DNA from: Bacillales bacterium UBA6356
Lineage (GTDB): Bacteria; Bacillota_I; Bacilli_A; RFN20; CAG-826
Length of the DNA stretch: 64,000 nucleotides
Reading direction: 5' to 3'
Assembly: GCA_002440125.1 (NCBI GenBank)
Contig: DJRQ01000035.1
Coordinates: 2,900 to 66,899 of the forward strand
Shown here: one piece after another, positions 6,755-53,707 of the stretch
Position numbering within the stretch: position 1 is the first letter of the stretch
How the letters are laid out: every line of letters begins with the position of its first letter
Program-made: the position numbers and the translations under genes
Notes under the pieces: model-generated
Told to the model about the DNA's origin: nothing
The model's input: only the letters and a program-made list of their open reading frames with translations
Database searches by the model: none

Positions 6755-7290
6755 CGCTTTTGCTTGATAGCGCTTCCATCGGATGCTCTTTTGAGAGTGC
6801 AAACTCCTTCTTCAAGAACCATATAGGTGCTTTCATGCCCCCCTTTGGGGAAACCGATGGAGCCGGGATTCAAAATAAAATATCCATGCTCTTCGTAACC
6901 CATTTCATAAATATGCGTATGCCCAAACAAAAGAATATCGCTTTTCGAAAAAGGAAGGCTTTGATAACTGGGAGGATCGCCATGAAATAGCCAAAAATCC
7001 CTATCAAAAACCCTCTCTTTTGCGTTTAAAAGGGCATTCTTTCCTAAAACCATTGAATCCACCCGAGAATCGCAATTGCCCGAAATCCAAAGCGTTTTCT
7101 CCATGAATGGCAAAAGAAGCCGAGCAACCACCATCGGCTCATAGTCCGAAGGGACGCCATTTCTCGGGCCGTTATAAAGCAAATCACCCAAAAGCCAAAT
7201 CCGATCGGGATTTTCTAAGGATAAACGGCGCACAAGCTCTTGGGCTTTCAAAGTTCTGCCGTGGATATCGCTCGCTACCAATATTTTCAT
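6745..7290 (-). CDS. YfcE/MJ0936-family metallophosphoesterase (phosphodiesterase)
   Basis: 181 aa. Calcineurin-like motifs are present: DIHG near the N-terminus, GDLL.NG, GNCD and GHTH. Confidence 0.75.
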   Translation of the reverse strand: MKILVASDIHGRTLKAQELVRRLSLENPDRIWLLGDLLYNGPRNGVPSDYEPMVVARLLLPFMEKTLWISGNCDSRVDSMVLGKNALLNAKERVFDRDFWLFHGDPPSYQSLPFSKSDILLFGHTHIYEMGYEEHGYFILNPGSIGFPKGGHESTYMVLEEGVCTLKRASDGSAIKQKRLP

Positions 7291-21382: not shown

Positions 21383-23209
21383 TTAATTGTCGTCGTAGTA
21401 TTTATCGTTGTCGTACTCGTCAAGATCGATATCGTCATACTCGTTTTGAGCATTCTCTTCTTCTTCCTTGGCGATTTCGTCGAGCTCTTCTTGGGAATAG
21501 ATCGGCATCGCTTCTTTCGGCATCTCTGCCGGCGTGATGCGGGCGACTTCCTTTTCGCTTATTTGGTGAGGACGCTTGCTCTTGACCCATTTGCCTTTAG
21601 CAGGAGCGTCTTTTTTCTTTGCGCTCTCTTCGAGATCCCTTTCGAGAGCGTCCAAGGTCGTCGTTGTCTTGACCTCCACCGGTTTTTCAAGTGGCTTGGG
21701 TTCTTCTTCTTTAAGAGGTGCGGCTTCTTGGACCGGCTCGGAAACGGGCTCGGCCTTCTTTTCTTCTTCTTTGATTTCCGGTGAAGGCGTCGGAGCTTCC
21801 TTGTTTTCAAGATCCTCCGCTTCCAAAGCGAATTCTTCCTCTTCTTCCGCGCTCATCTCTGGCATTGGAGCAGCGACAGGTCTGGCATTCTCGGCGTTTT
21901 CTTTGCGCTTCAAAGCCTCGCTTAGAGACTTCTGGGCGTAAGCTTGCCGTTCTTTTGCCTTCTTTTCTTCTTCAACGCTCTTTTGAAGCTCTTCGTAGCT
22001 CGTATATTGGATGCCTTCTTCCTTGGCTTCGCTTTCTTCAAGAATGTCAATGCTAAAGCCCGTAAGTTTGTTAGCTAAGCGAGCATTGGCACCTTTTTTG
22101 CCAATGGCCAAAGAGAAATCATCGTCCTTGACAACCGCCGTGGCAGTAGGATAGGGCTCGGCATGAAGGTCGTCGATTTTAACGCCGATGACATGAGCAG
22201 GGCGAAGAGACTCGGCAATGAAGAGAGCGGGGTTATTGCTCCAAGCGATGATATCGATTTTCTCTTTTTCTTTGCTGCCGTTTCCAAGTTGCGAGACGAC
22301 CCTTTGAATGCGAGAGCCGCCAGGCCCGATGCAAGCGCCCGTCGGATCAACATCGTCGTTGGTGCTTGTGACGGCGACTTTGCTACGAACGCCCGCCTCA
22401 CGGGCGATTCCTTTGATGATTACAGTACCATCATAGACTTCGTGGATTTCTTCTTCGAAAAGGCGTTTCAAAAAGCCTTCGCTGGCGCGAGTGACCATGA
22501 TTTGGGGTCCTTTGGGAGCCTTAGGCGCGTGTTCGCCAACTTGTTTGACTTCTTGGAGATAAACCTTCACGGTATCACCAGTCCGGAAGCTCTCATCGCC
22601 GATCATCTCATGGCGAGTGAGTTCGACGCTGGTGCGACCAATGTTGATGAAAACGCTGCGGTCATCAGCCTTTTCAACGACGCCCGTGACCATCTCACCG
22701 ATATGATCTTTGTAAATGTCATACAAAGCGACGCGTTCGGCTTCGGCGATGCGAGAGCGAAGCAAGCTCTTCACGCTCATGGCTGTCAATTTCGTGAGAT
22801 CGCTAATGGGGCAATAAAGAGCATAAGTGCCGCCGATTTTGATGTTCTTTTCTTCGGCTTTGACAAGAGCGATGAGATTTTTGATCTCCGGCTTTTGTTC
22901 TTTTTTGGCCTCATCAAGGCTTTCTTCCAAGTGCTCTAAAGTGTCCTTGACATCCTCTTTGGCGTCTTCTGGGGAAATCTCAAGATAATCGTCTTCGACT
23001 TCTTCCACGACCTTTTTCTTTTGGCAAAGGGTTATAAAGCCATTCTCTTCATCGATATTGGCTTCCACAACAGCGTCATCCCCGCCTCCTAAATGTTTGA
23101 TGTAGGCGCGTTCGATGGCTTCTTTTAAAGCCAGCACCACCGCTTCGTGGCTGATGCTTTTGCTTTCGGCGATTTGATCAATCGCGCTTTTGAATAGAAT
23201 CGGATCCAT
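21383..23209 (-). CDS. nusA: Transcription termination/antitermination factor NusA with ~230-aa acidic low-complexity C-terminal extension
   Basis: The N-terminal domain, S1 and two KH domains are recognisable. Residues from about 380 to 608 are E/K/P/D-rich, ending in DIDLDEYDNDKYYDDN. Confidence 0.9.
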   Translation of the reverse strand: MDPILFKSAIDQIAESKSISHEAVVLALKEAIERAYIKHLGGGDDAVVEANIDEENGFITLCQKKKVVEEVEDDYLEISPEDAKEDVKDTLEHLEESLDEAKKEQKPEIKNLIALVKAEEKNIKIGGTYALYCPISDLTKLTAMSVKSLLRSRIAEAERVALYDIYKDHIGEMVTGVVEKADDRSVFINIGRTSVELTRHEMIGDESFRTGDTVKVYLQEVKQVGEHAPKAPKGPQIMVTRASEGFLKRLFEEEIHEVYDGTVIIKGIAREAGVRSKVAVTSTNDDVDPTGACIGPGGSRIQRVVSQLGNGSKEKEKIDIIAWSNNPALFIAESLRPAHVIGVKIDDLHAEPYPTATAVVKDDDFSLAIGKKGANARLANKLTGFSIDILEESEAKEEGIQYTSYEELQKSVEEEKKAKERQAYAQKSLSEALKRKENAENARPVAAPMPEMSAEEEEEFALEAEDLENKEAPTPSPEIKEEEKKAEPVSEPVQEAAPLKEEEPKPLEKPVEVKTTTTLDALERDLEESAKKKDAPAKGKWVKSKRPHQISEKEVARITPAEMPKEAMPIYSQEELDEIAKEEEENAQNEYDDIDLDEYDNDKYYDDN

Positions 23210-26040: not shown

Positions 26041-26114
26041 TGGTGCCCCGCCGCAGAGTCGAACTACGAATTGGTCCTTACCATGGACCCGTTATGCCGT
26101 TTAACTAGCGGGGC
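26041..26114 (-). tRNA. tRNA-Thr (anticodon GGU), CCA encoded
   Basis: Manual fold: acceptor GCCCCGC/GCGGGGC, D-stem GTTA/TAAC, anticodon stem GGTCC/GGACC with loop AUGGUAA, T-arm CGTAG-TTCGACT-CTGCG, discriminator A, CCA. Confidence 0.8.
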
Positions 26115-42989: not shown

Positions 42990-43025
42990 CTTCCAAAAAG
43001 AAAACCGCCCCAACCAAGAGGCGGT
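42990..43025 (-). terminator. Rho-independent terminator closing the SipW-cognate operon (stem accgcc/ggcggt)
   Basis: Stem 43004-43009 paired with 43020-43025, loop ccaaccaaga. Followed on the minus strand by TTTTCTTTTTGG. Confidence 0.5.
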
Positions 43026-43052: not shown

Positions 43053-45302
43053 CTAGGAGACGGGCTTTCTTAAGAACAAGACCATGTTTTTCGATATTTT
43101 AGAACCGATTTTGAATTCCAATTCGGTTTGATGCTCGTAGAATTTCCTGCCACCCTCATAATTGAGGTAGTCCTCCACGGTCCATTTTTTCCCACTGCCG
43201 TCATAGTTATCAGGGGTGATGGGAAGATCTTTGGCGAAGGAGGCGCCCGATTCCACTTCGATAGAGCCTATAAGTCCTGTTTTCATGAATTCAGCATCGA
43301 CATCGATAAACCCTTCGGAATCGCGGACGATATTCGTTTTATTGACAATCCCCCCATCATAAACATAAACGCGGACGGATTCCGAATCGTGCGGCGCCAA
43401 AGCGATCCCGACCTTTGAAATGCGCAAGCTACCATCATCTTCGTAAACGTAAAAAGCGCGAACGAGAATATTGTAATAGTTCATCGAATTTTCGGTGATC
43501 CGAAAGAGGTTTTTCAAGTACCCTTTGGATTGATTGAAATCGTGGTTTTGGAAGAGGGGCGCATTTTCGATGTTTTGAAAATCGGTTTGAGCGCCGCCCA
43601 CTTCAAAAATCTTCGTTTCCGCGCCTTCGTTGGTATCGGATGCGAAAAATTCATAGTAAGAACTCGGATATTTTTCAAGGCGATCTTGCGAATGAGCATC
43701 CGCCTCAGCGGCGCTAACGGAAGTCAAACGCTCGTTTTCATCGAGAATATAAGCATTCGAAGCAATGGTGAACATATTGCTGTAATAAGAATATTGCTTG
43801 CCGTTATATTTAAACGTATTCATTGTCCTGGTCTTCATTCCATCGATGCGGACATTGTTGATTTCGAAATCGACATAGGGGTTTATAACGCCATCCGCGC
43901 TATAAGTTCCATTACCATATTTATAAAGAGAGGAGCCATTCTCGTAATCAAAGGAAACGTTTTTCCCAACGATTCGGAAATCGTCTATCTTCTCTATTTT
44001 GACATAAAGCTTTAAGCGAACATTCCCTACGTCCCTATACGCATAATTCGCATCGTTCAAAAGAGGGTCTTGGCAAAGAAGGAAGGGCCTTTTCGGTTTG
44101 GTGAGGTCGGTAAAGGCAGATGGCTTATTCGTCGAGACGTTGACGCTTGTCGGATAGCCAACATAAACCAAGATATTGTAGATCCCTTCTCCTAGGATAT
44201 TGGCGGATTTCCCAGCCTCGCTCCCAGCGAACAAAGCCTCATAGCTCGGGTGATAAAGGCCATTAGAGTCCTTCTCTAAGGACAAAGAAGATTGGGTCAA
44301 AGAATAATTCGCAGTCGTTTGATAGTTATACCATCCCCCAATCCATGTTCCAGGATTATAGGAAGTATAGCCGTTCGAAGAGAAACCAATAGGCGTGAAA
44401 TCCAGATAATAAATGGAATCCTTTTTAACGACCAGGTTGTTGTAATAGTAATAGGATTGGCTGTAGTTTCCTTCCGAGGCGTCTTGGGAAAAGTAATATT
44501 CTTCTTGGAAGATATAGTCGTTATTGAGTTCCGGGAATATCTCAGCCGTATCGCCATGAAGTCGAACGACGGGCTGTTGGGAAGTGGAATTATAGTTCTT
44601 CCCCGAAGTATAGATGGGATAGATGAATACCGTCTTTTTATTATAGGAAGAACCATCGATGCTGAACTCGCTATCGCTCGATAAAGCGGTCTCATCGACG
44701 TTGCTTAAAGGATCGAGAGCGCTGAGATAATGGAAGTTCCCCTGATTCATGAAACCGAGCTCGCTTACGTTTTCGACATCCGCGCTCCAACCGCAGAAAG
44801 AAAGACGGTAGCCTTTGGAGTCCTTGGCCCCGCATGAGGGCGAACCGATCTTTTCGAAGTCGTTTTGGGTGATGGAAGTATCGGCGACGAAATGCTTATA
44901 GGCGTACTTGGAATCATCTGCCGCATCCGTCCAAGCGCCGAAAAAAGAAGCGTCAGAGCTCGAAACGTTCGTACTTGAGGAGAAAGCGCTCTTCTTTTCG
45001 TCAAAGGCGCTTGCGGCATCGAATTTATCAAGATAGGAAGTATCGATGTTAAGGCCATTAGCGATGCCTTCTAAAATATAATCGGCATACATCCAGTTCG
45101 GGAAAACGTAAACGTCGTAGGTGTTGGCGTCGAGTTCGTAATTAGGGCGCACATCATCGATATAGGTATCGGGAATTATTTCCTTCTTCGTGCCTATAAC
45201 CTCTCCTAGAACCCACGTCGAAAAGGCGCTTCCGAGCATGAATCCCGGCAAAATCGCCAAGGCGAGAAGGGCGATCTTTTTGAATAATTTGGATTTCTTC
45301 AT
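43053..45302 (-). CDS. Large (749 aa) secreted Tyr/Asn/Ser-rich protein with SipW-cognate-type signal peptide; candidate fibre-associated adhesin
   Basis: N-terminus MKKSKLFKKIALLALAILPGFMLGSAFSTWVLGE, with K-rich, hydrophobic and G-S-A-F-S-T-W segments. The motif is shared with the two upstream genes and resembles the TasA/CalY leaders. The remainder is beta-rich low-complexity sequence with many N-x-S/T sites and no TM helix or LPxTG. Confidence 0.55.
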   Translation of the reverse strand: MKKSKLFKKIALLALAILPGFMLGSAFSTWVLGEVIGTKKEIIPDTYIDDVRPNYELDANTYDVYVFPNWMYADYILEGIANGLNIDTSYLDKFDAASAFDEKKSAFSSSTNVSSSDASFFGAWTDAADDSKYAYKHFVADTSITQNDFEKIGSPSCGAKDSKGYRLSFCGWSADVENVSELGFMNQGNFHYLSALDPLSNVDETALSSDSEFSIDGSSYNKKTVFIYPIYTSGKNYNSTSQQPVVRLHGDTAEIFPELNNDYIFQEEYYFSQDASEGNYSQSYYYYNNLVVKKDSIYYLDFTPIGFSSNGYTSYNPGTWIGGWYNYQTTANYSLTQSSLSLEKDSNGLYHPSYEALFAGSEAGKSANILGEGIYNILVYVGYPTSVNVSTNKPSAFTDLTKPKRPFLLCQDPLLNDANYAYRDVGNVRLKLYVKIEKIDDFRIVGKNVSFDYENGSSLYKYGNGTYSADGVINPYVDFEINNVRIDGMKTRTMNTFKYNGKQYSYYSNMFTIASNAYILDENERLTSVSAAEADAHSQDRLEKYPSSYYEFFASDTNEGAETKIFEVGGAQTDFQNIENAPLFQNHDFNQSKGYLKNLFRITENSMNYYNILVRAFYVYEDDGSLRISKVGIALAPHDSESVRVYVYDGGIVNKTNIVRDSEGFIDVDAEFMKTGLIGSIEVESGASFAKDLPITPDNYDGSGKKWTVEDYLNYEGGRKFYEHQTELEFKIGSKISKNMVLFLRKPVS

Positions 45303-45313
45303 CCTCTGCCCTC

Positions 45314-45943
45314 CTATTCCTTATGGGTTGCGACCACTTCGAAGTTAAAGCGAATCAAGGAGTTCGCTTTCTTTTCGTTCCAGACGATTTCTCTTAGCTT
45401 TTGATAGCTTTCTTTGGTGTCCGGTTCCATGCCACTCCGGTAGCCTAAAGAGATGGAAACGCTACTCGAAATCGGGCTTTCGAAATCGGAAAGAGATATG
45501 TTTTCCGAATCGCCATACCAAAGACCTTCTAGCGATTTCTCCAAGGAGGGGTCTGGCAAATAAAACTGAAAATAGGAAGAGAATTCGTCGCTAAGTTCGA
45601 TTTTATACTTGAAGGTATAGGTAAAATCCCCGAATGAGAGGCTAGTATCGTCTTGGAAAGACCATTGGTAGGTGAAATTAATGGGCGAAGGAAATTCAAT
45701 GCCATTCTGATCGACGATCAACTTCGGAAGCGTTCCATCGGGCGCATAAAGGGTATCGTTCTGGGAGCCAAAGGAGACATGAAGCGTCCCGAAGTTTTCT
45801 GGCACCTTTTTGGTTATTTCCAAGTCCGCTTGATCCTCTTTCCTAACAAGGGCATCAAAGACAAAAACGGAAAAGCCGCCCCCCACAATGGCGGCGCTAA
45901 GAAAAAGAGGAAGGGCTATCGCGAAAACCCTTTTAAGCCTCAT
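45314..45943 (-). CDS. SipW-cognate secreted protein (209 aa), candidate minor/accessory fibre component (TapA-like role by position)
   Basis: N-terminus MRLKRVFAIALPLFLSAAIVGGGFSVFVFD. Overlaps the peptidase gene by 11 nt. Confidence 0.5.
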   Translation of the reverse strand: MRLKRVFAIALPLFLSAAIVGGGFSVFVFDALVRKEDQADLEITKKVPENFGTLHVSFGSQNDTLYAPDGTLPKLIVDQNGIEFPSPINFTYQWSFQDDTSLSFGDFTYTFKYKIELSDEFSSYFQFYLPDPSLEKSLEGLWYGDSENISLSDFESPISSSVSISLGYRSGMEPDTKESYQKLREIVWNEKKANSLIRFNFEVVATHKE

Positions 45944-47480
45944 AGTGCTTCTCCCCTTTCTGCTCTCCGTTATAGCGGATTGAAATCTTCGAGTATTCCG
46001 TCGGGTTGTAATCGATGTTTATGGCTTTTTTGAAATGGAAGGTCAAGAAATATTCGCCTGCCTCCAAGGCTTCGAAGGATGAGGCTTTGGACAAAAAATA
46101 GACAAGGTTTCCGCTCTCTTCCAAAAGCGAGGCTTTCGCGTCCAAAACGGAAATCGTTTCTTTTTCCTTCGAATCGAAAGAAATGAAGGAGCGATACCCT
46201 TTCTTTTCGAAAGGCGAAGCGCCTTTCTCGTCCAAAAGCCCGAAGCTTCCTTTTTCCAAATGCCCATAGAACCCATAAAGAAAGCCCTCGGCCTCGTTTT
46301 GAGAAAGAAGCTTTAACGCCGCTTTTCTTTCGCCTTGTTTCAAATAAAGGTCGGCTTTCTCTTTTTTACTCACGAAATACACTCGCTTCGTGACTGGCTT
46401 AAGATCCTTCTTAGAAGGAAGGACTTCTTTCGTTACGCCTTCCATTTCGATGGAAGAGCTCCTCTTTTCCCTCGCATTTTCGGCTTCTCCCTTTCCTTCC
46501 GAAATGGCAGAATACGCTTCTTCCTTCGCTTTTTCTTCCTTTAAGCGAGACGCAAGAAGAGAGGATTCATTTCCTTGCTCTTTGACTTCATTCCCCTCTT
46601 TATCTACGCCGATAAGGCCATAAAGAATGGCTTCATAGCGGATTTCGTATTGGTCAGCGCTCTTCGTATAGAGAACGCTATAGACGATAAGGAGCATAAA
46701 GGCCGTCAACAAAGTGATAATGCCGATACCGCTTTGCAAATAGATGATAAACATCCCCAAGGTGAGGTTCTTATACCCAGTCCACTCCCCGACTATCTGA
46801 TCGTAAGCAATGGCGATTTCCCCCGCCATCGAGGTAGGGTTCGCATCGCCTCGAAAAGTATAGGCCTTCTGGCCGTCTTTCTCGGTGATATCGAGCAAAC
46901 GGTGAACGATCGTTATCGTCTTGCCTTCTTCTTTGCTATCCATCTTGAAGGCATAGACCTTATAGGGAACAAGTTCCTCTTCGCTTCGAACCTTTTTCAA
47001 AGTGACAAAGCCATAGCGTTCAATGCGGTTCTCATTCCCTAAAAGGTCATGTTCGGAAAGCTCGTTCCTATTTGAACGATGGATTTCAGACATCGATTCG
47101 GTATGAATGACAAGCATCGCCGTATCGCCCATAAAGAGCTGACCGCCCGCTTGTTGTTCCACCATGGCCAAAGCGACAAGCCCCAGCAAAAGAACGTAAA
47201 AAGCGATAAGAAAACCGCTAAGGACGTTAGAAGCTTTCTTTTCGCTCTTTTTCTTCTTGTTGATTCCTAAAGCGATGGAGCGAGGTTCGCCATATTTCTT
47301 TTGAAGGCGTCTGAGATCCTTTTTGACCGTTACTTCGATTTTAGGATCTTCCACTTTCGCTAGATATAAGCGCTTCTTGCTATGGAAATATAAGGCGGAG
47401 ATACCAATGAAAGCGACAGCGAAAAGAACAACTACAACCATGCAGACGATGTAGATGAGATTCATGCTATTCGTTGTCAT
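45933..47480 (-). CDS. ER/archaeal-type signal peptidase I (S26B; SipW-like), enlarged 515-aa form with extra TM segments and ~240-aa C-terminal extracytoplasmic extension
   Basis: The catalytic core sits between TM helices. S26 motifs TESMSEI (Ser box), TIVHRL (His in place of the P-type Lys, the ER/SipW type) and FRGDANPTS (GDNN-like Asp box) are present. AAGGAGGGG RBS. Confidence 0.6.
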   Translation of the reverse strand: MTTNSMNLIYIVCMVVVVLFAVAFIGISALYFHSKKRLYLAKVEDPKIEVTVKKDLRRLQKKYGEPRSIALGINKKKKSEKKASNVLSGFLIAFYVLLLGLVALAMVEQQAGGQLFMGDTAMLVIHTESMSEIHRSNRNELSEHDLLGNENRIERYGFVTLKKVRSEEELVPYKVYAFKMDSKEEGKTITIVHRLLDITEKDGQKAYTFRGDANPTSMAGEIAIAYDQIVGEWTGYKNLTLGMFIIYLQSGIGIITLLTAFMLLIVYSVLYTKSADQYEIRYEAILYGLIGVDKEGNEVKEQGNESSLLASRLKEEKAKEEAYSAISEGKGEAENAREKRSSSIEMEGVTKEVLPSKKDLKPVTKRVYFVSKKEKADLYLKQGERKAALKLLSQNEAEGFLYGFYGHLEKGSFGLLDEKGASPFEKKGYRSFISFDSKEKETISVLDAKASLLEESGNLVYFLSKASSFEALEAGEYFLTFHFKKAINIDYNPTEYSKISIRYNGEQKGEKHYEA

Positions 47481-47509
47481 ACTATCCCCTCCTTATAAGC
47501 CAACAAAGG

Positions 47510-47530
47510 CTTGGGGGAGGTGCCCCCAAG
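47510..47530 (-). promoter_or_regulatory. Intra-operon hairpin between the 225-aa subunit gene and the peptidase gene (possible partial terminator/RNA-stability element)
   Basis: 8-bp perfect stem cttggggg/cccccaag with loop aggtg. Only a weak T-run follows on the minus strand. Confidence 0.3.
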
Positions 47531-47555
47531 CGCAAAATACATTAAAAAGAATGAA

Positions 47556-48233
47556 TTAGGCCTTGACCAAAGTTGCTTCGCTTACAATGGAGACTTGTTG
47601 ATCTTTTACGGCTTCCTTTAAAGCAACGTATCCGGTTTCATTCTTCGGCTCTTTGCCGCTTTGGTAGTCGAAATAGAAGAAAGCACTTTCATCCTTATAA
47701 GATGTCGGAAGCTTAATAGAGGTCGCGTTTTCGCCCCAGGTATAGACATAACCAACGTAATTTTCGGAAGTAAACGACTTAGCGCTGGCGCTTCCGGTAG
47801 AGACGGCATATGTTTCGAAGGTGTAGCTATCCGCACCCTGAACCGAAATATATTCGCTCACCGCTTTCGGGACAAAGATATAGGTTTTGATGGAGGTCTT
47901 CACCTTCCCATCGACCTTATCGGAATTCGAACTGTTATAGGCAATCGTTCCTTTCCAACTCTCTCCTTCGCCTTCCATATAAATGCCGCCAGCCTCTAAG
48001 CCAGTTCCTAGACCATTTCCATTCGCAGTACGCCCTTCGGAAGTTTGATCCAAGATTATCTTCGAGGAAGCATCTTGTGTAAAAGTGCCGATTTTGACAA
48101 GCTGAGTCACGTTGATGCTCGCATTGCTTTCTTCTTGAGCTTTATCGCCGAAATACCAAACGGAGAAACCCGAACCAACAACGGCAATCGCAGCCGCCGC
48201 TGGAAGGGCAAATCCCACTAAAAATTTTTTCAT
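47556..48233 (-). CDS. SipW-cognate secreted protein (225 aa), TasA/camelysin-like candidate major fibre subunit
   Basis: N-terminus MKKFLVGFALPAAAAIAVVGSGFSVWYFGDKAQEE, compared with TasA ...ALVGGGTWAAFNDIKS. The mature part is Thr/Ser/Tyr/Val-rich and beta-type. First gene of the operon, directly after the AT-rich promoter region. Confidence 0.55.
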   Translation of the reverse strand: MKKFLVGFALPAAAAIAVVGSGFSVWYFGDKAQEESNASINVTQLVKIGTFTQDASSKIILDQTSEGRTANGNGLGTGLEAGGIYMEGEGESWKGTIAYNSSNSDKVDGKVKTSIKTYIFVPKAVSEYISVQGADSYTFETYAVSTGSASAKSFTSENYVGYVYTWGENATSIKLPTSYKDESAFFYFDYQSGKEPKNETGYVALKEAVKDQQVSIVSEATLVKA

Positions 48234-48965
48234 ATCCTTTTCCTCCTAATTCTTAGCGAGCAAAAATATAAGGTCTTTTTTTCGAATTTCAAGGAATATA
48301 CATTCGTCAATCTATTTCGTTTTCCTTCGAAATAAATAAAAGGAAACAGAAAATGTATGTGCTCTATAGAAAAATTTATTTTCTTGAAAATGTAACGATT
48401 TAATGCGTTCAAAACAAGATATTCAATGAAAATATTAATTTTTTCTTAAACGTTTAAGTTTTTATCATTTTAAGTCCGATATTTACTGAATTTTCTTCGT
48501 TCCTACCATTTTTAATTCTTCTTTGAAAGCGGTTTCATTTCCAAAATTCATCTACTTGAAGAATTCGAGTTCTTATGGGCTTTTTATTCATATTGTTATC
48601 ATTTATTGAATATCAGACAATAAAACATCTTAATTATCTTAACATTTTTCTTCAAAAAGCTTTTTAGGATGCGATTTTTCTTAAAAAACACTCGCAAAAA
48701 AAACAGCCCTCGATTTCTATATGTCAAAATACAATTGTTTCCTTATTTATTTAGATAAATAACTAATTTTGTATTTCACATTGTTGCTATAGTCGATGTG
48801 TCCGAATGGAACATATGTATTTTTTACCATTTTTTCTTGATGGCAAAAAGACAAAGTCTTCTATTTTTCAAATCAAGCAGATCGATGAAGAAAAGTCCGA
48901 ACTCTCTTCCCTCCTTCAGCTAGACCATCCAATTTAACTTTGGCGAATGGATAAAAAGTTTTAAT
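48234..48965. promoter_or_regulatory. ~730-bp strongly AT-rich non-coding region; divergent promoter/regulatory region for the SipW-cognate operon (-) and TetR gene (+)
   Basis: No credible ORF. The 60-aa track ORF at 48230-48412 is low-complexity. Many A/T tracts and TATAAT/TTGACA-like hexamers are present. GC is visibly far below the flanking genes. Confidence 0.45.
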
Positions 48966-48986
48966 ATGTATGCGGGAAGGGAATAT

Positions 48987-49568
48987 ATGGCTTATAGAAA
49001 ACTTTCGAACATTCGGGAATCCATTCTCGAGAAAGTCACCGAACTCGGGGCGAAGGAAGGCATTTCGTCGATTACCGCCCGAAAAGTCGCTTCTTTAGCG
49101 GATATCAGCACCCATACCATCTACACCAATTTCCTCTCGATGGACGATCTTATCAATGAAGCGGCCCTCCGTTACGAAAAGAAGGAGCTCAATGTCCTAA
49201 TTTCTTGCTTGAAAGAAAACATTTCGAAGGAAGAGGCCTTTTTAAAGACGCTTCAATCCCTTATGGAAGAGAAAAATGGCACTCTCTTTTATAGCGACTA
49301 TCGCTCGAGCAAGCTTCGGGAGTATTACGACCGTCAAAAGGCGAAAACTCAGAAATATATCGAATATTCCAAAATGCTTTTCGGAGATTACAAATCGGTA
49401 AGCGACAAGATTTATCTTTTCCTATGGAATCATGCGATTATGTGCTTATTCGTCTATTCAAGCGCCCTCATAAAAGGGAAGATCAACGATACTTTGGAGG
49501 CACGAAAAACCATTATCGAGATCATCTTTAATGGCACGACACACATTCTTCCGAAGAAAAAGCGATAG
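48987..49568 (+). CDS. TetR/AcrR-family transcriptional regulator
   Basis: N-terminal HTH ILEKVTELGAKEGISSITARKVASLADISTHTIYTNF. The start is trimmed to ATG 48987, which has a GGGAAGGG RBS. Confidence 0.8.
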   Translation: MAYRKLSNIRESILEKVTELGAKEGISSITARKVASLADISTHTIYTNFLSMDDLINEAALRYEKKELNVLISCLKENISKEEAFLKTLQSLMEEKNGTLFYSDYRSSKLREYYDRQKAKTQKYIEYSKMLFGDYKSVSDKIYLFLWNHAIMCLFVYSSALIKGKINDTLEARKTIIEIIFNGTTHILPKKKR

Positions 49569-49574
49569 TTTTCC

Positions 49575-49610
49575 CCAAAAAAGGCGAGAAAAAAACACGG
49601 ATTTCTCCGT
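49575..49610 (-). terminator. Rho-independent terminator after tRNA-Phe (stem cacgga/tccgtg + long T-run on minus strand); may also terminate TetR transcript
   Basis: Hairpin at 49595-49610. On the minus strand it is followed by TTTTTTTCTCGCCTTTTTTGGGG. Confidence 0.5.
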
Positions 49611-49622
49611 GCTCATTTCAGG

Positions 49623-49698
49623 TGGTGGCCCAGGGGGGAATCGAACCCCCGACACAAGGATTTTCAGTCCTTTGCTCTACCGACTGAGCTACCGGGCC
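49623..49698 (-). tRNA. tRNA-Phe (anticodon GAA), CCA encoded
   Basis: Manual fold: acceptor GGCCCGG/CTGGGCC, D-arm GCTCAGTCGGTAGAGC, anticodon stem-loop AAGGA-CUGAAAA-UCCUU, T-arm GGGGG-TTCGATT-CCCCC. Confidence 0.9.
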
Positions 49699-49701
49699 GC
49701 C

Positions 49702-49778
49702 TGGCGGATCATACGAGATTCGAACTCGTGATCTCCTCCGTGACAGGGAGGCATGTTGGACCGCTACACCAATGATCC
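49702..49778 (-). tRNA. tRNA-Asp (anticodon GUC), CCA encoded
   Basis: Manual fold: acceptor GGATCAT/ATGATCC, anticodon stem-loop CCTCC-CUGUCAC-GGAGG, T-arm ACGAG-TTCGAAT-CTCGT, discriminator G. It lies 3 nt upstream of tRNA-Phe. Confidence 0.9.
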
Positions 49779-49792
49779 ATCGCCGTGCCTAA

Positions 49793-49825
49793 GTATTATC
49801 CATAAGTGGAGAGGATAATGCAAGA
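49793..49825 (-). promoter_or_regulatory. Candidate promoter of the tRNA-Asp/Phe pair (TTGCAT-17nt-GATAAT on minus strand)
   Basis: Read on the reverse complement: -35 TTGCAT, a 17-nt spacer, and -10 GATAAT about 20 nt upstream of the tRNA-Asp 5' end. Confidence 0.35.
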
Positions 49826-49872
49826 GATATTTATAAGAATTTTAGCCGAATATCGGGCTTTTTGAAGAAGCT

Positions 49873-49906
49873 TTAAAGAAACAAAAAGCCCTCGCTAAAG
49901 AGGGCT
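49873..49906 (-). terminator. Rho-independent terminator after rubrerythrin (stem agccctc/gagggct)
   Basis: 7-bp stem with loop gctaa, followed on the minus strand by TTTTTGTTTCTTT. Confidence 0.5.
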
Positions 49907-49927
49907 AAGTCCTTAGTGAAAAAGAAA

Positions 49928-50467
49928 CTAATAATTCTTTGCGCGAAGTTCGAAAAAGGCTTTCGGATGTCCGCAAACCGGGCAAACCTCAGGAGCGAAT
50001 TTCCCCACCACGATGTGACCGCAATTGCGGCATTTCCAGACCGCCACGTCTTTGGAGACGAAGACCACGCCTTCTTTGACATTGGCAAGAAGTTTCTTGT
50101 AGCGTTCTTCATGCTCCTTCTCGATGGCACCAACCATCTTGAACTTATTGGCGATTTCGATAAAGCCTTCTTCGCGAGCGACTTTCTCGAATTCCTTATA
50201 CATATCGGTCCATTCGTAGTTCTCGCCAGCCGCCGCCGCCTCAAGATTCTCGGCGGTTGTTGGAACATCGCCGCCATTAAGGTATTTGAACCAAAGCTTG
50301 GCGTGTTCCTTTTCGTTATCGGCCGTCTCTAAGAAGATGGCGGCTATTTGCTCATACCCTTCTTTCTTGGCTTTCGAGGCGAAGAAAGTGTATTTATTGC
50401 GAGCTTGGCTTTCACCCGCGAAAGCGGTCATTAGATTTTTTTCGGTTTGAGATCCTTTGAATTCCAT
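49928..50467 (-). CDS. rbr: Rubrerythrin (ferritin-like diiron domain + C-terminal rubredoxin-like CxxC...CxxC)
   Basis: 179 aa. E..H diiron ligands across the four-helix bundle, and a C-terminal CRNCGH...CPVCGH. Confidence 0.9.
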
Positions 50468-52477: not shown

Positions 52478-53113
52478 CTATTCTCCGTCTATATCTTTGA
52501 AAGTGATCTTCGCGCTCGCCAATCTCCCCGTAAGGAAACGTTCTTTTTTCCGTTCGGCGCTATCGAAGAAGATTTTATCGAAAGCCTCCCAAAAAAGCAC
52601 CCATTCGGCGGTGCTTAGCAGCTCCGTGGCAATAAGAAACAAAAAATTGAGACCCGGGTCTTTCGAACCAAGCTGGTTCGAAAAAGCGCTCACGATGGCA
52701 AAGGCCAGCAAAAACAAAATGCCAACCTGGGTCATAATGAAAACCGCTATATGGCTGCTTTTCTTCTTCGCTCCCAGCGAATCGAAGGAAAACAAATAGT
52801 GATTGCGGTAAAGGGAGGCGATCTCGATTTGACGCTCTTTTAAGGAATTTCCAAGCTCAAAATCAATAGACAATGGAGCATCGGGTGGGAATTCCGAAAC
52901 GACCCTTTCGATATAGTTAAAAACCTCTCCGTTAAGCTCTTGTTTGTTGCTATAGGCATCAAAGCAAGCGTCTTCCGAAGCCAAGAAGACCGTAACATGA
53001 AAAACCCCGTTCTCGTCCTTCTTAGAAAGGAGAGCCTTCTCTCTTTCCAAGGAAGCATCCAAGCGGATGGACTCGATCTTCTCCCCTAATGCTTTAAAAT
53101 CTTTTCTTCTCAT
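52478..53113 (-). CDS. Hypothetical membrane protein (two C-terminal TM helices), first gene of GT4/acyltransferase operon
   Basis: 211 aa. Soluble N-terminal half, then hydrophobic spans IAVFIMTQVGILFLLAFAIV and LNFLFLIATELL. No known motif. Confidence 0.45.
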   Translation of the reverse strand: MRRKDFKALGEKIESIRLDASLEREKALLSKKDENGVFHVTVFLASEDACFDAYSNKQELNGEVFNYIERVVSEFPPDAPLSIDFELGNSLKERQIEIASLYRNHYLFSFDSLGAKKKSSHIAVFIMTQVGILFLLAFAIVSAFSNQLGSKDPGLNFLFLIATELLSTAEWVLFWEAFDKIFFDSAERKKERFLTGRLASAKITFKDIDGE

Positions 53114-53659
53114 ATCCCAACTATTCTACAATAGCCGAAAAGGAAGAAAAAGAAAGACTTCTTTGGGCTTATTCTATCGATGGAAGCTACATCTTTCTTT
53201 CAAAAGACGCCAACTTCCCATAAGCTTTGCCTAACCTTCGAAACCGATTTCTCCATATTCGCGCAAAAATGATTCCAAGGGACTTTCTCTCTTGCTATAG
53301 AGCCAAAAACAAGAAGCTCCGATAAAGCGCATGGATGGAGCCTCGTTAAACAAAGTAGCCAGAATGAATAACGTTTTAAAAAAGAAGAAACGATAGGAAA
53401 TGCTAAAAGCCAGCCAAATGAGGGGACGTTTCTAAAATCCTTTCTTCGGAGCCAAATGAATCCGCCGAAAAAATCGAAAAAAGCAAAATCCTCTCTATCG
53501 CCATCAAGGATCTCGAAAAGCTTTGAGGAAAACACAAGGTATCGCTTGGGGAAGAAAGAAAGACTTTTTGTAAATAATGCCGATTCGAGAAAGAGGAAAC
53601 GTAGAGGTGCAAGACGCAAGAAAAAAGGGAAAAGACAAAACAAGAGCAAAAAAACTCCC

Positions 53660-53696
53660 CTCAAAAAGCAAAAAATAAAACCCTGGCGAACCAGGG
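53660..53696 (-). terminator. Rho-independent terminator downstream of initiator tRNA (stem ccctgg/ccaggg, loop cgaa)
   Basis: Perfect hairpin at 53681-53696. Followed on the minus strand by TTTTATTTTTTGCTTTTTGAGG. Confidence 0.55.
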
Positions 53697-53707
53697 CATA
53701 CTTCATT

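Follow-up and report, generated by a model that had tools for sequence, protein, structure and literature searches.

What would a signal peptidase of the SipW type do with 515 residues, and on which side of the membrane would the additional ones lie? The question is raised by one gene of Bacillales bacterium UBA6356, located on contig DJRQ01000035.1 (assembly GCA_002440125.1, forward-strand positions 2,900 to 66,899). This 64,000-nucleotide stretch is referred to below as the window, and positions are counted from its first letter. An initial annotation, made from the letters only, had described the gene product as an enlarged SipW-like peptidase with an extracytoplasmic C-terminal domain. The reading that we now consider probable is that of an active membrane-embedded S26B-like signal peptidase, dedicated to the secreted proteins encoded around it and provided with a cytoplasmic, lineage-specific tail. 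The open reading frame (ORF) was found where that annotation had placed it, on the minus strand.

45933..47480, minus strand: whole ORF of 515 aa, divergent S26B-like signal peptidase with three predicted transmembrane (TM) segments and a long C-terminal tail

The catalytic part was examined using a family alignment (n = 55) that comprised the window peptidase and 54 loci from species-representative genomes.

46767..47162, minus strand: catalytic beta core, residues 107-238, predicted to be extracytoplasmic (hhalign alignment with SEC11A, PDB profile matches, sub-threshold NCBIfam matches, invariance with n = 55)
47094-47096, minus strand: Ser129 of the catalytic core
46902-46904, minus strand: His193 of the catalytic core
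46845-46847, minus strand: Asp212 of the catalytic core
46818-46820, minus strand: Glu221 of the catalytic core

Alignment of the family profile with human SEC11A by hhalign (probability 91.8%, E=7.5e-7, 105 columns; fragments of the SEC11A sequence used agree with the PDB alignments) paired S129 with S56, H193 with H96 and D212 with D116. The alignment of the catalytic Ser, His and Asp with Sec11-type enzymes, suggested earlier as a check, was thus obtained. When searched against PDB, the same profile matched SEC11C and SEC11A with E=1e-4 to 9e-4, in alignments spanning the IVHR and GDN boxes; a single-sequence search of PDB with the window peptidase matched nothing. Residues S129, M130, H193, R194, the TFRGD stretch ending in D212, and N214 were invariant in all members (55/55). 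The distance from H193 to D212 is 19 residues, equal to that from H87 to D106 in SipW, whose triad is Ser47/His87/Asp106 (PMC8767453). Given the SEC11A alignment, the invariance and the 19-residue spacing, the enzyme was assigned to the Ser/His, endoplasmic reticulum (ER) type (S26B-like). Judged by its sequence, it is a very divergent member of this type that lies beyond the curated models, and it is very probably catalytically active. The SipW/Sec11-type assignment of the initial annotation was borne out in this way, though under every curated threshold, and its motifs were placed at residues 127-133 (TESMSEI), 192-195 (VHRL) and 209-217 (FRGDANPTS).

The enzyme has the Ser/His/Asp chemistry in common with Bacillus subtilis SipW, and with SEC11A/SEC11C and archaeal Sec11-type enzymes it has in common an alignable core with the IVHR and GD-N boxes. 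The distance between the Ser and His boxes is about 20 residues longer than in SEC11A (measured by hhalign), and this insertion also sets it apart from SipW. P-type enzymes such as LepB, SipS and SpsB (S26A) share its overall fold class. One of them, the type I signal peptidase SpsB, was the top Foldseek match of the full AlphaFold2 (AF2) model against PDB, although the match was weak (E=0.017). P-type signal peptidases use a Ser/Lys dyad (PMC8767453). Unlike them, the window peptidase has an invariant His at the general-base position and lacks a match to the Pfam S26/S24 models.

Integrity of the ORF was assessed from its relatives. The start codon, ATG at 47480, is preceded by a strong Shine-Dalgarno sequence, AAGGAGGGG. 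Among 5.8 billion proteins searched, 18 related clusters were found in total, ten of them full-length (493-518 aa, covering 94-100% of the query at 47-97% identity), and a 97%-identical strain, recovered from two independent samples, carries the same peptidase gene in the same four-gene context. The initial annotation had considered that the tail might prove to be a separate ORF after correction of sequencing errors; the ten clusters and the 97%-identical strain keep the full length. P0019, a 140-aa protein that had been considered as a free-standing tail-domain gene, was rejected as such: it is an edge fragment of a 1,116-bp contig, and its frame runs on upstream to the contig edge. The ten independent full-length clusters, the syntenic strain and the fragment nature of P0019 together largely refute a frameshift or fusion artefact. 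The database sources gave an annotation name for none of the peptidase homologues, and further homology searching (word-indexed, with a 52-sequence profile) added essentially no new members.

Membrane segments were delimited by hydropathy, which gave three hydrophobic segments, at about residues 8-31, 86-106 and 239-272, and were compared with the AF2 model.

47388..47459, minus strand: TM1, residues 8-31, additional N-terminal helix, predicted N-out (hydropathy, AF2 helix 3-40, 50/55 members)
47226..47387, minus strand: basic helical loop, residues 32-85, with 18 K/R, predicted cytoplasmic, containing the ED motif
47163..47225, minus strand: TM2, residues 86-106, equivalent of the canonical SipW/Sec11 N-terminal anchor (hydropathy, AF2, weak alignment with the SEC11A TM)
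46665..46766, minus strand: hydrophobic stretch, residues 239-272, consisting of an interfacial helix (239-249) and TM3 (about 251-272) (hydropathy, AF2)
46584..46664, minus strand: juxtamembrane helix continuing TM3, residues 273-299, predicted cytoplasmic

The full AF2 model (mean predicted local distance difference test score, pLDDT, 68) contains helices at 3-40, 46-63 and 66-110, the beta core at 115-238 and a short helix at 239-249, followed by a single long helix (251-290) that crosses the membrane and extends into the tail. This layout, TM1, basic loop, TM2, core and TM3, was present in 50 of the 55 members; the others are truncated or fall just below threshold. Within the third hydrophobic stretch, G242, Y247, S250 and G253 are conserved. 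The two hydrophobic helices separated by a basic loop before the core, and the third helix followed by a long hydrophilic tail, had all been noticed in the initial annotation; the loop measures 54 aa, the additional N-terminal helix is found family-wide, and the tail amounts to about 243 aa.

A signal peptidase needs to have its catalytic domain on the trans side. As only TM3 follows the core, the tail is predicted to be cytoplasmic, and not outside the membrane as had been proposed. The 54-aa loop, with its 18 K/R, is placed in the cytoplasm by the positive-inside rule, since loops of the family are basic on average (17.2 K/R vs 11.4 D/E, net +5.8). The catalytic cores average 13.0 K/R vs 18.5 D/E (net -5.5), and the N-termini are short, with a mean of 1.1 K/R. 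The composition of the tail (K+E 27.6%, S+T+N 15.6%) is like that of the cytoplasmic loop and unlike that of the three mature secreted neighbours (K+E 12-17%, S+T+N 23-26%). SipW offers a precedent, as its C-terminal 20 residues, after the second TM, are described in PMC8767453 (citing Terra et al. 2012) as lying on the cis side; the cytoplasmic topology of the SipW tail is also given in PMC13566338. From the three TM segments, the charge bias, the AF2 helices and this precedent, the predicted topology is N-out, TM1, loop in, TM2, core out, TM3, tail in.

Two conserved sites lie on the predicted cytoplasmic side: the ED motif (residues 44-45; 47346-47351, minus strand), about 12 residues after TM1, with D45 in 50/55 members, and the near-invariant R281 (46638-46640, minus strand; 51/55), after TM3. 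The two might be in inter-helix contact.

Compared with SipW, TM segments before and after the catalytic domain and a C-terminal tail predicted to be cytoplasmic are held in common. The differences are the length (515 aa vs about 190 aa), the additional N-terminal TM with its 54-aa basic cytoplasmic loop, and a tail of about 243 aa with a folded beta domain (vs about 20 aa). SEC11, with only one N-terminal TM, acts together with accessory subunits; here the additional TM and the cytoplasmic parts are joined in one chain. No description of a SipW-type enzyme with three TM segments or a long tail was found in the searchable literature.

The tail itself had been taken as one C-terminal domain of about 240 aa. 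It was resolved instead into four parts, namely the juxtamembrane helix (273-299) listed above and the following three.

46359..46583, minus strand: disordered K/E-rich linker, residues 300-374, pLDDT <40, fast-evolving
46026..46358, minus strand: compact all-beta domain, residues 375-485 (about 110 aa), 11 strands, pLDDT ~90, conserved in the sub-lineage
45936..46025, minus strand: low-confidence C-terminal end, residues 486-515 (AF2)

Modelled alone with 12 homologues, the beta domain reached a pLDDT of ~90 over its 11 strands. Among relatives that are about 77% identical overall, identity was 73-80% in the beta domain and 39% in the linker; among those about 50% identical overall, it was 31-41% and 9-17%, respectively. 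The ratio of nonsynonymous to synonymous substitution rates (dN/dS), measured against the 97%-identical strain and based on very few substitutions, was lowest in the core (0.11), intermediate in the beta domain (0.26) and highest in the linker (0.63). A conserved beta domain beside a fast-changing linker is what one would expect to see if a folded domain under selection were attached by a drifting tether.

Tails in the family measure 19-261 aa and are of several unrelated types; most members have 19-85 aa. The profile of the domain (A2) matched only the window lineage and L001-L004, with marginal matches in L013/L015. Long tails of other kinds occur in L005-L008, in L009 and in L017/L024, which gives at least four unrelated long types, and by sequence comparison the tail region is a hot-spot for lineage-specific additions. 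Whether homologues carry the same extension had been named earlier as a check; ten clusters do so at full length, but the tail is not family-wide. By analogy with the cytoplasmic tail of SipW, the tail domain most likely serves as an adaptor or as a regulatory module in the cytoplasm. According to PMC8767453, the tail of SipW also activates matrix genes, a second function that is non-proteolytic, and so provides a precedent for a functional cytoplasmic tail.

The proteins that such an enzyme would process were sought among its neighbours. The peptidase gene comes second in a compact operon of four genes on the minus strand, in which the genes are tightly packed or overlapping, each with its own Shine-Dalgarno sequence; the start of gene 3 overlaps the peptidase stop by 11 nt.

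48265..48292, minus strand: promoter-like TTGAAA-16-TATATT upstream of gene 1 (consensus match only)
47556..48233, minus strand: gene 1, secreted protein of 225 aa, signal MKKFLVGFALPAAAAIAVVGSGFSVWYFGD, putative major substrate
47509..47531, minus strand: GC-rich hairpin of 9 bp, 7 of them G-C, between gene 1 and the peptidase gene
45314..45943, minus strand: gene 3, 209-aa paralogue of gene 1, signal ending IVGGGFSVFVFDA
43053..45302, minus strand: gene 4, secreted protein of 749 aa, signal ending GFMLGSAFSTWVLGE, no known domains
43004..43025, minus strand: terminator-like hairpin with T-tract, closing the four-gene operon

Each of the three partners has a basic n-region at its start and then a hydrophobic region, after which comes G-[SG]-[GA]-F-S-x-[WF]. 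Genes 1 and 3 also have a C-terminal Y-x-SG-x-EP motif in common. Within the window, the motif was found in a signal-peptide context only in these three flanking genes. Searching the related loci for a hydrophobic region followed by [VI]G[ST]GF[SA]xW[YV]F gave 86 ORFs adjoining the peptidase, in 47 of the 54. Three metagenome-assembled genomes (MAGs) hold two peptidase loci each: L014+L025, L036+L054 (on the same contig, CASGAD010000014.1) and L038+L051. Each locus of the pairs L014/L025 and L036/L054 is accompanied by motif-bearing neighbours of its own; L038, which is short and end-truncated, shows none. Because three MAGs hold two cassettes each, a dedicated rather than a housekeeping role is favoured. 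The association of VGSGFSxWYF-bearing neighbours with the peptidase supports the view that together they form a dedicated peptidase-plus-substrates cassette, in which the signal peptides of the neighbours would be cleaved by the peptidase. Bacillus offers a known example of an ER-type signal peptidase dedicated to a substrate class of its own (SipW, with TasA and TapA).

The arrangement resembles tapA-sipW-tasA, in that the peptidase gene shares an operon with its own putative substrates and the signals are alike (...VVGSG here, ...LVGGG in TasA). When the neighbour family was aligned by hhalign with TasA, only the signal peptides aligned (MKK...avVGSG vs MKK...alVGGG, E=2.8e-5). Unlike those of SipW, the neighbours are not detectably homologues of TasA, TapA or CalY. 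Co-occurrence with SipW-cognate proteins, another of the checks named earlier, was accordingly borne out for the TasA-like signal peptides and failed for homology to TasA, TapA or CalY. As the mature domains of TasA, CalY and TapA have no detectable counterpart among the neighbours, the word 'fibre' is an analogy only. Among ten large neighbours no domains were found except one Ig-like Big_2, in one of the most distant relatives, which would suit a surface protein. A variant of the signal motif, IGT[AG]YA[TM]W, was seen in neighbours in the most distant relatives L053 (4904-7420), L054 (4408-7464) and L051 (183-737).

Strong hairpins of unrelated sequence occupy the same intergenic position as the one between gene 1 and the peptidase gene in L001-L004, L006-L008, L012 and L030. 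The hairpin may be an attenuator or an mRNA stabiliser favouring gene 1. Since it comes after gene 1, the product of this gene was proposed as the abundant subunit, and it is the probable major one. The cassette as a whole probably makes a structure of the surface or matrix in abundant gut bacteria.

Several results weigh against this interpretation. The best curated models were matched below their cutoffs: the NCBIfam SipW model NF046067 gave 33.7 bits (E=2.5e-8, cutoff 190), with residues 160-273 on profile positions 59-166 of 189, and the archaeal signal peptidase I model TIGR02228 gave 27.1 bits (E=3.2e-6, cutoff 51.85), again over residues 160-273. No Pfam model, S24 and S26 included, gave a peptidase match at E<=1 for the window protein. 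The second acidic residue of S26B enzymes, D122 in SEC11A and D109 in yeast Sec11, stands six residues past the Asp of the GD box. The position aligned with D122 is Met218 here. Glu221, three residues later, is found in 51/55 members and the remaining four carry Asp at 218, so that an acidic residue is always present near the GD box. The orientation was predicted from hydropathy, from charge bias and by analogy; the stretch 239-272, at 34 aa, is long, with a break at a conserved Q-S-G, and a re-entrant or hairpin arrangement there, unlikely as it is, would put the tail outside. The neighbours gave no family match in Pfam, NCBIfam or the PDB sequences, and 58 neighbour proteins contained no match to TasA, CalY/camelysin, TapA or SipW-cognate (TIGR04088-type) families. 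The beta domain is without relatives by sequence or fold; an exhaustive hidden Markov model (HMM) search of 1.84 billion representatives gave nothing beyond members of the family or fragments and Calx-beta repeat noise. Finally, the tail domain is not needed for catalysis, as most family members do without it.

How far these points favour another explanation can be judged case by case. The sub-threshold scores and the resemblance of P0019 to a separate tail gene would suit an inactive pseudo-peptidase, or an assembly or frameshift artefact fusing two genes, to which next to no weight is given: the catalytic residues are invariant throughout the family, the frame is kept in the ten clusters and in the 97%-identical strain, and P0019 continues upstream. 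The enzyme could instead be the housekeeping type I signal peptidase of reduced-genome Bacilli, its linkage to the neighbours being incidental or partial. Its location among housekeeping genes of the core chromosome (pst operon, IF-2, NusA, PNPase, RNase J, FtsK) is in keeping with this. We regard it as unlikely in view of the motif-bearing ORFs that adjoin it in 47/54 loci from about 54 species, the MAGs in which two paralogous cassettes each include a peptidase and substrates of their own, and the restriction of motif-bearing signal peptides in the window to the genes beside it.

The remaining alternatives concern the tail. The initial annotation had proposed that this region of about 240 aa, lying outside, recognises fibre subunits or scaffolds their assembly in place of a TapA-like factor. 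A folded, conserved beta domain is indeed present at the C-terminus, the operon lacks a recognisable TapA-like protein, and the 34-residue stretch interrupted at Q-S-G makes a hairpin conceivable. Against these stand the odd number of TM segments combined with an external catalytic domain, the first helix of that stretch, which spans only ~11 residues in the AF2 model, the K/E-rich composition shared with the loop and not with the secreted neighbours, and the cytoplasmic position of the homologous SipW tail. Moreover, tails in most members accompanied by neighbours of this kind measure only 19-85 aa, so the tail is no general assembly factor. Recognition or scaffolding outside the cell is hence very unlikely. 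That the tail is a functionless, drifting appendage, arisen by ORF extension or domain accretion, is rated a little higher, as quite unlikely. Its varying length and type between sub-lineages, the almost neutral evolution of the linker and the confinement of its homologues to the peptidase family all fit; the identity kept by the beta domain where the linker has lost most of it (31-41% against 9-17%), its high pLDDT and its dN/dS of 0.26, over few sites, do not.

Under the preferred reading, a dedicated peptidase with a tail inside the cell, the three operon partners (two paralogues of ~210-225 aa and one protein of 749 aa) would be exported via Sec. Ser129/His193/Asp212, with Glu221 as a likely additional acidic residue, would cleave them at or near VGSGFSxWYF, and the cleaved partners would be released for assembly into a surface or extracellular structure in which the gene 1 product would be the abundant subunit. 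The flexible linker would tether the small folded beta domain in the cytoplasm, as an adaptor or regulatory module. A further step is put forward tentatively and is held to be rather doubtful: the beta domain could be the second module of a bifunctional peptidase, linking subunit processing to the cell interior from the cytoplasmic face, with TM1 and the loop replacing the accessory subunits of the eukaryotic signal peptidase complex. If this were true, the beta domain could sequester or release a regulator of the operon, or recruit pre-proteins, the Sec machinery or a translating ribosome to the peptidase, and it would represent a much enlarged version, with an orphan fold, of the poorly understood regulatory tail of SipW.

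The related loci are labelled as uncultured Bacilli, 'Mollicutes' UMGS bins, Firmicutes CAG:449, Clostridium sp. CAG:568 and Candidatus Onthovivens, some of these bin labels being obviously unreliable; this peptidase branch is confined to uncultured small-genome gut Bacilli. It defines a divergent branch of ER-type peptidases that no curated model recognises, with a fixed three-TM architecture and a variable, predictedly cytoplasmic tail. It also marks a conserved and entirely unannotated secretion cassette, consisting of two small paralogous subunits and one protein of ~750 aa. For annotation, the combination of the peptidase with the VGSGFSxWYF signal class can serve as a rule. The 'bifunctional' result for SipW raised the question of what the cytoplasmic tail of SipW-type peptidases does. 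A natural series of tails, in which some members have none, others have unrelated types and others again a folded beta domain, could be used to study it.

Other features of the window were recorded as follows. The four-gene operon is followed by the pst operon, within a wider stretch of core chromosome that includes IF-2, NusA, PNPase, RNase J and FtsK. Upstream of gene 1 lies an AT-rich spacer (48234-48965; the composition window 48001-50000 has a GC content of about 0.39). Across this 730-bp low-GC spacer, and divergent from the operon, a TetR_N-like regulator is encoded (48966-49568, plus strand; 23.4 bits vs a cutoff of 24). The idea that it is a conserved partner of the tail was rejected, as the regulator is confined to the same species (L055, L056) and does not accompany the cassette in other loci. 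In the 97%-identical strain (L055), a 79-aa gene was called in the spacer at 6996-7235, overlapping the start of gene 1; the spacer of the window contains only a 60-aa ORF with a TTG start (48230-48412), which looks non-coding.

A tRNA-Thr (ggt) was called by ARAGORN at 26041-26114 (minus strand) and is not in the Rfam gathering-threshold scan. The NusA ORF (21383-23209, minus strand, 608 aa) has Pfam domains up to about residue 345 and a long C-terminal region beyond them without a Pfam domain. Two ORFs on the minus strand, of 211 aa (52478-53113) and 168 aa (53200-53706), gave no Pfam match; both are conserved in L055, and the 211-aa product has a C-terminal hydrophobic region.

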